From the IMG/VR virus record IMGVR_UViG_3300046004_000518, positions 46,478-110,477 of that record: a stretch of 64,000 nucleotides of DNA, one strand, 5' to 3'. Position 1 is the stretch's first letter. Each line of letters begins with the position of its first letter. A model generated the notes under the pieces. It saw only the letters and a list, made by a program, of their open reading frames with translations, was not told where the DNA came from and made no database searches. The stretch is from a virus. Shown here in pieces: positions 37,387-45,415 of this stretch. The position numbers and the translations under genes are program-made.

Positions 37387-39298
<1,912 letters not shown>

Positions 39299-40950: not shown

Positions 40951-40978
40951 ATTATACACTCTTTTATAGAATTGTCAA
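40951..40978 (-). promoter_or_regulatory. Sigma70 promoter TTGACA-16-TATAAT
   Basis: Perfect hexamers with extended -10 TG. Confidence 0.8.
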
Positions 40979-40980
40979 GC

Positions 40981-41010
40981 AAAAAGAAAGCCCACCGAAG
41001 TGAGCTTCCT
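40981..41010 (-). terminator. Rho-independent terminator ending the tmRNA coding piece
   Basis: AAGCTCAC-TTCG-GTGGGCTT-TCTTTTT. Confidence 0.85.
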
Positions 41011-41360
41011 ACTAGTTTTGATTACAAGGTATAGTTACCCCGTGGTGTTTGTTTCTTAGGCAAACGTTGCTGTTTTAGTAGCAGAACCGAAGCGGAAGCC
41101 ACGACCCATAGATACTTTTACAGCACCAGTTGTAGATGTTTTTGCATTTACAAGATTTTGTATTTTACGTGACCCCACGTGTTGAGTTGTTATCCTATCT
41201 CACGCTGTCGAAACCTGGTCAGGCCCATCAGAAGCATACTATCTCGCTAAAGACATAATCCTTACGGGACCTTAGTGACAATATACTTTTGGTGGACCTG
41301 GGCGGAATCGAACCGCCGTCCAACATGTATTACTTTACAACTTTGCCTTACGGCTACAAC
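40985..41360 (-). ncRNA. ssrA: Circularly permuted (two-piece) tmRNA: acceptor piece ~41360-41290, intervening segment 41289-41227, coding piece from 41226; tag ORF 41145-41056
   Basis: GGGCCUG/CAGGUCC-ACCA acceptor stem with G3-U70; T-arm GGCGG-UUCGAUU-CCGCC; D-loop UUCGAC; P2 pairings CAGCGUG/CAUGUUG and ACAACU/AGUUGU; resume context UAAAU-GCA; the CCA end precedes the 5' end. Confidence 0.9.
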
Positions 41361-41381
41361 AATTTCTTTAGTACTAGTGTA

Positions 41382-41585
41382 TTACACTGGTACAATATTC
41401 GAAGCTTGCTTGCCCTTAGGACCTTGTGTTACTTCAAACTTTACTGCTTGGTTTTCTGCTAGTGTTTTGAAACCTGTGCTCTCAATTGCTGAGAAGTGAG
41501 CAAATAAATCCTCACCTCCTGCGTCTGGAGTGATAAATCCAAAACCTTTTGAATCCGAAAACCATTTTACTTTACCTGTTGCCAT
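41382..41585 (-). CDS. cspA: Cold-shock protein
   Basis: GKVKWF..KGFGFI...[11 protein letters not shown]1/RNP2; promoter TTGACT-17-TATTAT at 41624-41652. Confidence 0.96.
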
Positions 41586-41656
41586 TACTGTTACTTCCTT
41601 TATATTTAATTTACTACATAACTATAATAACATACTATAATCACGTAGTCAACTAT

Positions 41657-41796: not shown

Positions 41797-42225
41797 CTAC
41801 GGTTTTACTACAATTGGCGGTAATGTCATTTCAATTGTACCATTACTAAGATATCTCTTCTTTTCTGTACTAAAATTTCGTTGCATAAATGTTGCTCTGC
41901 CGCCTTCTACCCACCAAGTATTAACCAACGGTATAACACGTATAGTAGGTGCTGGACCTGCTCCTTCTGACTTTGACATCAGCTGGGTTGGAATTTCAGA
42001 AGTGTCTGGACTATTCCAACATCCTTCATGATTGACCAAATCAGAACTTTCCGTAGCATAAGCACGATACGGATATTCTTCTGCCATCTTCTCAACAGTA
42101 CATGGTCGTGTAGTTAACACAACAACCCCACCGGCATCATCGGGCATGTACATTTCCTTAGGCAATTCAGCTGCCGCCACAGACTGAAATAACGATGCTG
42201 TTAACAATAATAGTATTTTACGCAT
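41797..42225 (-). CDS. Secreted/periplasmic hypothetical protein
   Basis: Signal peptide MRKILLLLTASLFQSVAAA; AGGAGG RBS; TAAATA at 42277-42282. Confidence 0.7.
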   Translation of the reverse strand: MRKILLLLTASLFQSVAAAELPKEMYMPDDAGGVVVLTTRPCTVEKMAEEYPYRAYATESSDLVNHEGCWNSPDTSEIPTQLMSKSEGAGPAPTIRVIPLVNTWWVEGGRATFMQRNFSTEKKRYLSNGTIEMTLPPIVVKP

Positions 42226-42321: not shown

Positions 42322-42630
42322 TTATGCAACTATACCCACCCGTGCTCGAATTGCTTCTAAACTGATTGCCGGCTTAGTAACCCTAACAGTATTATATTTC
42401 TCATCCGATAGGTTAATTGCTTCTGCATATCGAGCTGTCTGCATTAAGTCAGTGGTTTTAAGATACGCAACCACTCCTGCTTTAGTCAACGGAGCCGCTA
42501 GTTCAATTAATTCGATATCAGTATGACCTGATTTAATTAACATCTTAACTCGACTAACAAAATCATTAGCAAAGCGTACTTTGGTAACGCCATTTAATGT
42601 TGAAACCCCTGCTACTTTAAATAAAGACAT
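42322..42630 (-). CDS. Phage hypothetical protein
   Basis: FKVAGVS...KVRFAND; AGGAG RBS. Confidence 0.7.
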   Translation of the reverse strand: MSLFKVAGVSTLNGVTKVRFANDFVSRVKMLIKSGHTDIELIELAAPLTKAGVVAYLKTTDLMQTARYAEAINLSDEKYNTVRVTKPAISLEAIRARVGIVA

Positions 42631-43111: not shown

Positions 43112-43501
43112 TTATGCGACCCACCCTTGACCAGTAATTTCATGTAGCCACGGATAAAAACTAGGAATCCGCATAGTCCACTCACCGTTAAAATTTAAGT
43201 AACTGGTAGTAGGTTTTGCTACAGTATCCTGATATAAAGGAATAATTTCGTGGCCGTCAATAATAACTTTAACTTCTACTGCTTCTGGATGCTGGCGTGT
43301 TACAATAACCTTAATTTCAATAGGACCATCAATTGGATAACCTTTAACTAGGATTGATTTATTACTATCTAATAGCCCATCGTGTACTACCTGCCCATTA
43401 ATCAAGGCCACACAAACACACTTATCAACAGGTGTTAGTATTAACTCTATAATAGAAGTTAATTGAGGTTTAATAGCCGTAGCTTCTGAGAAATTCTTCA
43501 T
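43112..43501 (-). CDS. Hypothetical protein; start revised to MKNFSEA
   Basis: Overlaps the 3' end of the radical SAM gene. Confidence 0.6.
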   Translation of the reverse strand: MKNFSEATAIKPQLTSIIELILTPVDKCVCVALINGQVVHDGLLDSNKSILVKGYPIDGPIEIKVIVTRQHPEAVEVKVIIDGHEIIPLYQDTVAKPTTSYLNFNGEWTMRIPSFYPWLHEITGQGWVA

Positions 43502-44795
43502 ATTCCGGTAAATGATCCAATATATTATTGTTGTGTACTTGTTCAAATGCCTTGGTAAACTTAACTAGATTCGCACGTTCTTGTTCGCAGTCTAAGGGCA
43601 CCTGTATAGCTTCTAAGAGCTGTTTATACTCAAAGATTAAGTTGCTGATCACAGGTCTTACAAGGTCTTCTCTACGGCGATTAATTATGGTTTCATTCGG
43701 AACCAAACTATGCCGTTGGATTACTTGATCTAATTTTGCTACGGCAGTCTTACGTAGATCATTGGGCAACAGTTCAATGCGCAGGCAAGTGGGATCGCTA
43801 AGAATATTGCAACTTTCAGCAATAACGCCATTGACCAACATGTACTCAAACACTTGATCTAAATGATATATGGTATAGATGCTAGGTGTAATACGTAAGG
43901 TAATTTGTATGCCTGTAGAATCACGTAGTGCTAGAAAACGATCTAGATTATGTTTAACTTCATCAATCTTACTTGGATAGCGTATATAATCGTTTAGTGA
44001 GTCGAATGTTTCTATACTAACGCCTAGATGAAACTGTTTAAACTCACTTATAATATCAGCAAGTTCATCACTGTAGATAGTACCATTGGTAGTAATGCCC
44101 ACAATGATATCACGGCTAATACCTGCGGCAATTAATGCTGAACATATACGATAAAAGCTCTTTAGATAAAGTGTTTCTCCACCTAAAAAGTGTAGATACT
44201 TAAGACCTTTTATTTCTATTAACTCAGTAACAAACTTATCTACTAACTCATCATTGTCTGACCAATTCTTAAAACGATCATAGGTTTTAAAAATTGTAGG
44301 CTCAATAGCTGTTAACTGTTCATACTCTTTAGTTAGACGACTGCTGTAGGTAGGATTACACATGATACAGCTACTATTACAAGTATTACCTAGATCAATT
44401 TGAATATCAACTGGCGTGCGATTGATTTGCCCATCATTCTTATACGAGTAATTAAAATTTGACCAATGCGGACTGCTGACAAATGTCTTATTAAAGTTAT
44501 CTACAGTAACAGCACTTTTCAGTAGTTGCCGTTGACGACCACTAACTTTATTATGCTGATCTTCGTAATAACAGCCCTGGCATTCTGTACTAGGAATACC
44601 GGATAGTTGCTGTGTACGAAACGCACACATTGTAGGACTGTTCATAAACTCTGCAATTGATGTGTCGCAGATATTGTAATCACTTTGCCCGTCACCTGGT
44701 CGCCATTCACTCATCCAACGACAGGGAATGTAATAGCCTGCTGGCGTTATTCTAAAGTGGAACCAAGGACTGGAGCAAAATGTATCTTTAAGCAT
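43470..44795 (-). CDS. Radical SAM protein with N-terminal twitch/SPASM-like Cys cluster
   Basis: CNSSCIMC (CxxxCxxC), GGE, TNGT; N-terminal CSSPW..PC...CQGC. Confidence 0.9.
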   Translation of the reverse strand: MLKDTFCSSPWFHFRITPAGYYIPCRWMSEWRPGDGQSDYNICDTSIAEFMNSPTMCAFRTQQLSGIPSTECQGCYYEDQHNKVSGRQRQLLKSAVTVDNFNKTFVSSPHWSNFNYSYKNDGQINRTPVDIQIDLGNTCNSSCIMCNPTYSSRLTKEYEQLTAIEPTIFKTYDRFKNWSDNDELVDKFVTELIEIKGLKYLHFLGGETLYLKSFYRICSALIAAGISRDIIVGITTNGTIYSDELADIISEFKQFHLGVSIETFDSLNDYIRYPSKIDEVKHNLDRFLALRDSTGIQITLRITPSIYTIYHLDQVFEYMLVNGVIAESCNILSDPTCLRIELLPNDLRKTAVAKLDQVIQRHSLVPNETIINRRREDLVRPVISNLIFEYKQLLEAIQVPLDCEQERANLVKFTKAFEQVHNNNILDHLPEYEEFLRSYGY

Positions 44796-45415
44796 TAACG
44801 TTTCGTAATAACTTCGTCGGCTAAACCGTAGGCCACTGCTTCATCTGCTGACAAGAATGTATCAAACTTCATTGCTTCATATAGTTCGTCGTACGTTTTA
44901 CCAGCAGTATTGTGACGTGCATATAACTCTGTTAGACGTTTGTTAATGCGCACACTTTCTTCAAAGCTACGTTTAGCATCTTCAAATTGTAGGTCTTGTA
45001 CGTGTACACTACCACGGGTGCCCGGAGTACCTGAACTAACACGGTGAATCATTGTACGTGCTTCTGGTAGGACAATACGCTTGCCTGGCGCACCTGCTTG
45101 CGCTAGGAAGCTACCCATTGAGCAGGCTTGACCAAGTACAATAGTTGATACATCACATTTGATAAACTGCATTGTATCATAAATTGCTAGGCCAGCAGTA
45201 ACACTGCCACCTGGACTATTGATGTAGAACAAGATATCTTTCTCTGGGCTTTCGCTTTCTAAGAACAGCATCTGTGCCACGATTAAACTAGCAGTATGCT
45301 CGTTAACATCAGTGTCCAACATGATGATACGATCTTTAAGTAAACGACTATAAATGTCATAGCTACGTTCGCCTTGACTTGTACGTTCTACTACCATTGG
45401 GACTAAAGTTGACAT
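44795..45415 (-). CDS. clpP: ATP-dependent Clp protease proteolytic subunit
   Basis: [33 protein letters not shown] (Ser), MIHR (His). Confidence 0.95.

Follow-up and report, generated by a model that had tools for sequence, protein, structure and literature searches.

The tmRNA gene of a metagenomic phage encodes a tag of 29 residues whose basic center is conserved as a peptide across a phage-only family. At three times the usual length and with such a conserved core, this tag suggests that its content matters to the phage beyond the release of ribosomes. The reading that we favor, with a probability of about 0.5, is that the gene specifies a functional phage two-piece tmRNA that depends on the SmpB of its host, and that the long tag is a two-part degron of the Clp type. 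The window, the whole stretch of 64,000 nucleotides that was analyzed, lies in a 110,477-bp IMG/VR viral contig which CheckV rates as 28% complete. A relative that shares the tag (G006) is represented by a complete 329,321-bp genome with terminal repeats, and its size indicates that the carriers are jumbo phages of ~330 kb.

One permuted tmRNA was called in the window by ARAGORN (40965..41382, minus strand), with a written tag of 29 residues. Two Rfam models match it: RF04321 (tmRNA_permuted) at 84.4 bits against a cut-off of 47, with the full model (1-213) covered, and RF01850 (beta_tmRNA, the betaproteobacterial two-piece form) at 84.6 bits against a cut-off of 84. The tRNA-like domain, with acceptor stem and T-arm, is present in permuted order, the acceptor piece preceding the coding piece. 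Its acceptor stem pairs GGGCCTG with CAGGTCC and places a G-U wobble at pair three (G3-U70), which is the alanine identity pair, while ACCA is encoded at 41293..41290. The T-arm stem (41317..41313 with 41305..41301, GGCGG and CCGCC) closes a TTCGATT loop, and the 5' segment of the coding piece (41181..41226) is invariant in alignment A1. Rfam reported no riboswitch match at the tmRNA. The transcription unit is laid out as follows:

41624..41652, minus strand: predicted sigma-70-like promoter of the csp-tmRNA unit (TTGACT, 17 nt, TATTAT, with TG)
41382..41585, minus strand: cold-shock protein gene (csp), 67 aa (Pfam CSD 1.9e-28; NCBIfam CspE-like)
40965..41382, minus strand: permuted two-piece tmRNA gene, whole precursor (ARAGORN, Rfam)
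41290..41342, minus strand: acceptor piece, comprising the P2 5' strand, T-arm, acceptor 3' strand CAGGTCC and ACCA ending at 41290 (Rfam alignment, sequence)
41227..41289, minus strand: intervening segment of 63 nt, separating the CCA end from G1 of the coding piece (by position)
41181..41226, minus strand: start of the coding piece, with the acceptor 5' strand GGGCCTG (41226..41220), the D-arm analogue and the P2 3' strand (Rfam, sequence)
41167..41180, minus strand: hairpin ACGTG-GGGT-CACGT, preceding the resume codon in the PK1 position (Rfam structure line)
41056..41145, minus strand: tag frame, 29 codons and TAA (ARAGORN, sequence)
41089..41118, minus strand: tag core KVSMGRGFRF, tag residues 10-19 (from relatives; weak beta-hairpin prediction)
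41047..41065, minus strand: helix 5, GTTTG/CAAAC, its loop holding the last Ala codon and the stop (from comparison)
41025..41042, minus strand: hairpin 3' of the tag, CGGGGTA ... TACCTTG (alignment columns 147-165)
40985..41010, minus strand: predicted intrinsic terminator of the tmRNA transcript, with stem, TTCG loop and T run

The end of the csp gene coincides with the start of the tmRNA precursor, and promoter and terminator bracket the two genes, all on the minus strand; the tmRNA would be co-transcribed with csp from its own predicted promoter. Beyond the tag, the post-tag hairpin (41025..41042) is conserved with compensatory changes among relatives (RNAalifold), and the terminator covaries among them. 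The csp gene and its promoter are a swapped-in cassette, because the closest relatives, L081 (tmRNA 96% identical) and L109 (85%), match both sides of 41648..41373 but do not have that stretch. Directly past the tmRNA terminator, a perfect sigma-70 consensus promoter for the next gene (TTGACA, 16 nt, TATAAT; 40951-40978, minus strand) suggests that the host has a standard sigma-70 and that this gene is strongly expressed at an early or middle stage.

By analogy to bacterial two-piece tmRNAs, tRNA-processing enzymes would cut the precursor into an acceptor and a coding piece, and the intervening segment is probably cut out in that split. Since no SmpB was found in the window contig or in five relatives, including the complete 329-kb genome, the tmRNA would have to use the SmpB, alanyl-tRNA synthetase and ribosomes of the host. 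Stalled ribosomes would then receive alanine, followed by the 29-residue tag.

From the resume codon GCA (41145..41143), 29 sense codons run to 41059 and are closed by the stop codon TAA (41058..41056). The GTAAAT that precedes GCA (41151..41146) places U at position -5 and A at -4, and both nucleotides are kept in 15 of 15 aligned members, in the context GTAAAT-GCA or ATAGAT-GCC. The equivalent pair in E. coli, U85 and A86, sets the tmRNA frame (PMC2481249). Precisely this tag, from GTAAAT-GCA to TAA, had been proposed in a sequence-only reading of the locus, and the identical ARAGORN tag and the Rfam calls bear it out. That reading had also described an unusually long, basic phage tag that has five Lys/Arg, no acidic residue and a TFA end, and neither an ANDE head nor an LAA end. 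The description holds: the peptide contains five Lys/Arg and zero Asp/Glu, its head is A-K-T-S-T-T and its C-terminus TFA, so that two features of the canonical ssrA degron, the C-terminal L/V-A-A and the acidic A-N-D-E head, are missing from the window copy.

By itself, a run of 29 codons is unremarkable. At the stop-codon frequency of 38% GC an open frame of this size arises by chance with P ~0.14, and its length alone is not significant; the case for a real frame therefore rests on relatives, in which frame and resume context are kept, the hairpin around the stop covaries and purifying selection acts on the core. The alternative resume frames (+1 and +2) were rejected, as they give short peptides that differ between relatives. 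A hairpin loop holds the stop codon of the tag frame, and its stem stays paired although the sequence differs by lineage: GTTTG/CAAAC in the window, GCAG/CTGC in the group of L088 and L128, and GTTTTAG/CTAAAAC in that of L048 and L132. On its non-coding strand, this helix has changed in step with the codons for the T-F-A end, which speaks against decay. Two loci (L048:11135-11165 and L132:3861-3891) have two in-frame TAAAT-GCA contexts 15 nt apart, the first of which would give a tag of 35 aa, not 30.

Tag conservation across related phages was among the checks named in the sequence-only reading, and a single long-tag architecture indeed recurs in at least 59 fetched viral loci, with 19 distinct peptides of 28-33 aa. 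Each tag consists of four parts: a head that varies, a core that is basic and amphipathic (KVSMGRGFRF in the window), a short and likewise variable linker, and a hydrophobic-Ala end. The family core was defined by the pattern K-[VF]-[ST]-x(0-2)-[GA]-[KR]-G-[FV]-[RK]-[FL], located ~9-10 residues past the resume Ala, and the tag studied here fits it. As a member of a conserved family, the tag is more credibly translated, and the features peculiar to the window copy weigh correspondingly less.

How this family is distributed was approached from several sides. The 32-nt acceptor arm has exact matches in 114 viral contigs; in bacteria, such matches are limited to six Cupriavidus contigs and one contig of a candidate-phylum MAG. 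Some 110 of the viral copies that share this arm write tags of 10-15 aa of the ANDERFALAA type, and a minority write tags of 26-31 aa that are of two kinds, one with the core KVSMGRGFRF as in the window. A search degenerate at every synonymous position found the exact core peptide in 23 viral contigs; the core pattern had 0 matches in ~185,000 bacterial and archaeal species genomes. Because the degenerate search is able to find synonymous variants only, sampling was added through a linked gene that encodes a conserved 102-aa protein, and this tag-blind route yielded 80 fetched loci from at least 324 related viral loci. The same long-tag architecture is present in 30 of the 80. Core variants in this sample include R to K, S to T and V/F swaps, as well as F-K-F-S-G-K-G-V-K-L and V-K-V-T followed by (K/R)-G-F-R-F. 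The tmRNA had no blastn match in cultured phage genomes, and relatives reached through a downstream 368-aa gene (L002-L008) had no tmRNA at that position; one phage among the latter relatives (G003) carries a different tmRNA elsewhere, with a short tag, and the 368-aa gene was therefore set aside as an anchor. The core motif was absent from the literature searched and from the supplements of the 2025 tmRNA database paper, and a long-tag family with a conserved basic core was not found described.

The tag module also sits on another scaffold. The complete genome G006 carries it on a clearly different tRNA-like domain (L132:3692-4030), in which the T-arm loop reads GGCAGAA instead of TTCGATT and which scores best with the alphaproteobacterial model. 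ARAGORN does not recognize this tmRNA, and censuses based on that program consequently undercount phage tmRNAs. The other kind of long tag (26-31 aa) is an unrelated family with the same type of tRNA-like domain, a conserved F-T-G-N-T-V center and an acidic aromatic head; a csp gene lies directly upstream in 4 of 5 of its loci and is 74-77% identical to the csp of the window.

L022:3551-3954, L060:10879-11269, L107:4368-4783, L110:2336-2739 and L151:3179-3555: loci of the second long-tag family

The Cupriavidus copies write ordinary tags. In their contigs (L153-L158) the two-piece tmRNA is of the phage type and its acceptor arm is identical; one strain has two matching contigs, one of them with a full ARAGORN call, and these copies are probably prophage-borne second tmRNA genes. 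One of them (L157) writes an aberrant 17-aa tag.

The central question for the core is whether it is conserved as a peptide or as RNA. Conservation at the nucleotide level is considerable: the core is identical in the first seven sequences and in 18 of 24 exact-core copies, and RNAalifold can pair its 3' half with the end of the frame. Such observations would fit a core that acts as an RNA element, or a tmRNA that serves as a decoy titrating host SmpB, with a tag of no relevance, and a phage molecule that consists of a tRNA-like domain only and inhibits tmRNA is on record (PMC4131195), which we count for the decoy. Against both, the helix shows no compensatory change (covariation term -0.16), and seven synonymous sites vary among the 23 exact-core contigs, giving five versions of the nucleotide sequence. 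In divergent members other codons specify the same residues, and one such member has changed its core Ser codon from TCT to AGT. At synonymous positions the core is as divergent as its flanks, whereas at non-synonymous positions it is about five-fold less so. In sums over the pairs of 17 distinct frames, pN/pS is 0.21 in the core (at pS 0.30), compared to 0.83 in the eight codons before it (at pS 0.42), 1.63 in the three codons after it and 0.77 in the last three codons, with flank pS of 0.28-0.46; as the pairs are non-independent, this contrast of about four-fold or more is descriptive and not a test. An RNA element was therefore rejected as the cause of core conservation, given synonymous and conservative changes and a helix that does not covary. 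We regard both the RNA element and the decoy as highly improbable.

As judged from these substitution patterns, the core is conserved as a peptide, and this in turn supports translation of the frame. The core has a G-(K/R)-G turn that is flanked on both sides by alternating hydrophobic and basic residues. AlphaFold, run on the 19-sequence tag alignment, places strands at residues 9-13 and 18-22 at low confidence (pLDDT ~76 in the core, mean 61.7), and the core probably forms a beta-hairpin according to this model.

The surroundings of the gene are rich in proteostasis functions. GroES, GroEL and ClpP form a block around the tmRNA, with two conserved small genes in between:

44795..45415, minus strand: ClpP, 206 aa, on the strand of the tmRNA and 3.4 kb upstream of it (Pfam 5.4e-65; NCBIfam NF001368 256.5 bits, cut-off 249)
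42322..42630, minus strand: conserved 102-aa protein, syntenic with the tmRNA across the clade
41797..42225, minus strand: conserved protein of 142 aa that starts with a signal peptide, its gene separating the 102-aa gene from the tmRNA
37387..39298, minus strand: GroES (39298..39005) and GroEL (39027..37387), downstream of the tmRNA

The gene order of the exact-core subclade is a DksA/TraR-like zinc-finger gene, ClpP, a variable stretch, the 102-aa gene, the 142-aa gene, the tmRNA, a second variable stretch, GroES and GroEL. The variable stretch after ClpP holds a radical SAM/SPASM gene and small ORFs in the window; the radical SAM/SPASM gene (43470-44795, minus strand) starts at the ClpP stop codon and occurs in some relatives only (29-59% identity). 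The phage ClpP has the Ser, His and Asp contexts in place. A ClpA homologue of 769 aa, ~4 kb before the start of the window, scores 829.6 bits with TIGR02639; it contains two intact sets of Walker motifs as well as an IGF docking loop. An additional one-ring AAA+ protein of ~404 aa (AAA_2, ~105-112 bits; ClpX-sized) is found in some clade members and adjoins ClpS in two phages with AFA-ended tags (G046 and G047).

G046:C1:13175-15425, G047:C1:118312-120343 and G056:C1:90484-91053: loci of the ~404-aa AAA+ protein

The small neighbors were considered as cryptic SmpB, ClpS or SspB and rejected, as neither has a Pfam or PHROG match, the 142-aa protein has a signal peptide and the 102-aa protein has no recognizable fold (model pLDDT 87.8, no Foldseek match, best VIA Z-score 3.6). 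Several GIY-YIG nuclease domains are among the weak structural matches of the 102-aa protein (Z 2.5-3.6); its 3,728 metagenomic relatives are all without annotation, and its gene often adjoins a tmRNA whatever the tag type. The 142-aa protein, which is predicted to be exported, has conserved Cys residues and is kept in the long-tag subclade, an odd companion for a cytoplasmic proteostasis block.

This protease set raises the possibility of a degron private to the phage. The core would be read by the N-domain of the phage ClpA, by ClpS or by another adaptor, products would be handed to phage ClpAP and bypass host SspB and ClpXP, and ends of the TFA type would tune escape from host ClpXP. Several findings are consistent with such a channel: ClpP occurs in every long-tag carrier checked and, in 18 of 18 contigs with the exact core, is encoded at a distance of 1.6-5.2 kb from the tmRNA; all related contigs of sufficient size have a ClpA homologue, and 7 of 8 related records have ClpS, including the contig of the closest relative. 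The tag moreover lacks an SspB-binding head, and no SspB is encoded in the 8 related records, three of which are 97-100% complete. A first sample appeared to strengthen the association, with ClpP in all long-tag contigs and ~19 short-tag contigs without a comparable ClpP or any ClpA; the short-tag phages of that sample belong to lineages other than the long-tag clade. Within the clade defined by the 102-aa gene, members with short tags (14 aa ending FALAA in G042-G044, 10 aa in G041 and 11 aa in G055) carry the same ClpA and, except for G041 (a 45%-complete record), the same ClpP. The protease set thus does not track the tag type; because short-tag members carry both proteins, ClpA and ClpP are traits of the clade, and their association with the long tag may reflect shared ancestry only. 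ClpP and ClpA were dropped as specific partners of the long tag on these grounds. Only the tight linkage of ClpP to the tmRNA is special, and only to the exact-core subclade; a dedicated pairing of tag and protease may nevertheless exist. As the neighborhood also offers no adaptor candidate, with the 102-aa protein lacking a recognizable fold and the 142-aa protein predicted to leave the cytoplasm, we consider a private degron a tentative and somewhat doubtful proposal. Separately, ClpP-like genes of ~115 bits in five short-tag contigs (G015, G030, G031, G032 and G039) each have one in-frame TAA; they may encode prohead proteases whose frame is recoded or interrupted.

The C-terminal ends of the family help to separate what is general from what is peculiar to this copy. 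LAA, VAA, VLA, ILA, VMA, ALA, TFA and AFA are all found among the 19 distinct peptides; 15 of the 19 end in one of the first six, and most relatives in LAA, VAA or VLA. The TFA end is limited to the window phage and L081, and the AFA end to two distant members with tags of 32-33 aa. In nearly all others, a Glu or Asp lies 4-6 residues from the end, where the window tag has Lys and L081 has Arg. Since most family members differ from it in these respects, the TFA end and the loss of the acidic residue arose within one sublineage and do not characterize the family. With mostly canonical ends and an acidic residue 4-6 positions from them, the family at large resembles a Clp-type degron in sequence.

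Two further functions have been weighed against these ends. The tag could spare its products from degradation or add a functional basic peptide, two options that the sequence-only reading had also offered, or it could mediate sequestration, aggregation or nucleic-acid or membrane binding through its basic hairpin. A core that is strongly basic, amphipathic and conserved as a peptide is in line with this, as is a window copy with neither a canonical end nor an acidic residue; yet the hydrophobic-Ala-Ala-type end that most relatives retain is hard to explain without degradation, and the gene lies within a block of proteases and chaperones. A function other than degradation is therefore unlikely in our view. 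Mycoplasma tags are ~27-29 aa long, have an FA terminus and are degraded by Lon. The sequence-only reading had drawn on this likeness, and its interpretation of the locus as a phage tmRNA with an atypical tag stands, while the analogy to Mycoplasma and Lon is not supported in the form proposed. A length of 29 aa and an FA end, with AFA in two distant family members, would fit a long tag that redirects its products to Lon, but no Lon was found in the 8 related records, the same family mostly ends in LAA, VAA or VLA, and these phages invest in ClpA, ClpP and ClpS. Redirection to Lon is accordingly very unlikely, and together with an RNA element or decoy it has the least support among the rivals.

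The interpretation that we prefer is that the tag most likely acts as a proteolysis signal for Clp-type AAA+ proteases, degradation being suggested by the ends of the family. The hydrophobic-Ala C-terminus would enter the pore of the unfoldase, and the core, a pattern of 9-10 residues of the form h-K-h-S/T-x-G-K/R-G-h-K/R-h that is modeled as a beta-hairpin, would provide a second recognition or tethering element in cis, much as the SspB site does in E. coli tags. A TFA end lacking an acidic residue may tune the rate of degradation or the choice of protease. Several points count against this reading. The TFA end differs from what ClpX recognizes in E. coli, and E. coli ClpS, an adaptor that these phages mostly encode, diverts ClpA from ssrA-tagged substrates; ClpA and ClpP also occur in clade members with short tags, and the hairpin model has low confidence.

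Why phages carry tmRNA at all is unsettled, and tags were not analyzed in the literature searched. The motif of 10 residues, combined with the set of ClpA, ClpP and ClpS, provides a handle on the question of whether protein quality control is reprogrammed by phages as they infect. If the degron were indeed private, it would amount to a private channel for trans-translation and degradation, in which host SmpB and ribosomes perform the rescue and the phage protease alone reads the degron efficiently. The tag could also serve as an orthogonal degradation tag in synthetic biology. If, on the other hand, it is handled like any ssrA tag, it is a sequence curiosity.

Several known systems provide points of reference. 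The Mycoplasma tags are similar in length to the 29 aa of the window tag and share its FA end; they differ in that the phages have no Lon in the records searched but possess ClpA, ClpP and ClpS, and in that the phage family mostly ends otherwise. The E. coli system of ssrA, SspB, ClpXP and ClpAP likewise appends a C-terminal peptide by trans-translation and follows a two-part logic, and the phage encodes homologues of ClpA and ClpP. The window tag differs from E. coli ssrA in having neither an AANDENY-like head nor LAA, no SspB accompanies it, and its basic, hairpin-like core has no E. coli counterpart. Among phages, huge genomes are known to carry tmRNA and some of them SmpB (PMC7162821), and cultured jumbo phages, PA5oct among them, have genes annotated as ClpA homologues. 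The 2025 tmRNA database includes 79 tmRNAs from phages, and the commonest tag length given there is 10 aa. Two-piece forms account for 53 among 133 unique phage tmRNAs, mostly aquatic (PMC9004378). The OM43 phage Melnitz and the pelagimyophages of that study likewise carry a permuted ssrA in a lytic-looking phage genome with no need for a phage SmpB; their tags were not analyzed there, and the window tmRNA differs in being of the betaproteobacterial type (RF01850), with no riboswitch match and a 29-aa tag. Similar in design are the betaproteobacterial two-piece tmRNA (RF01850) and its phage relatives, which share the tRNA-like domain, the resume context and the overall layout. Compared to the acidic-headed tags of 10-15 aa ending in LAA that these phage relatives write, the frame in the window is about three times longer and bears a basic core.
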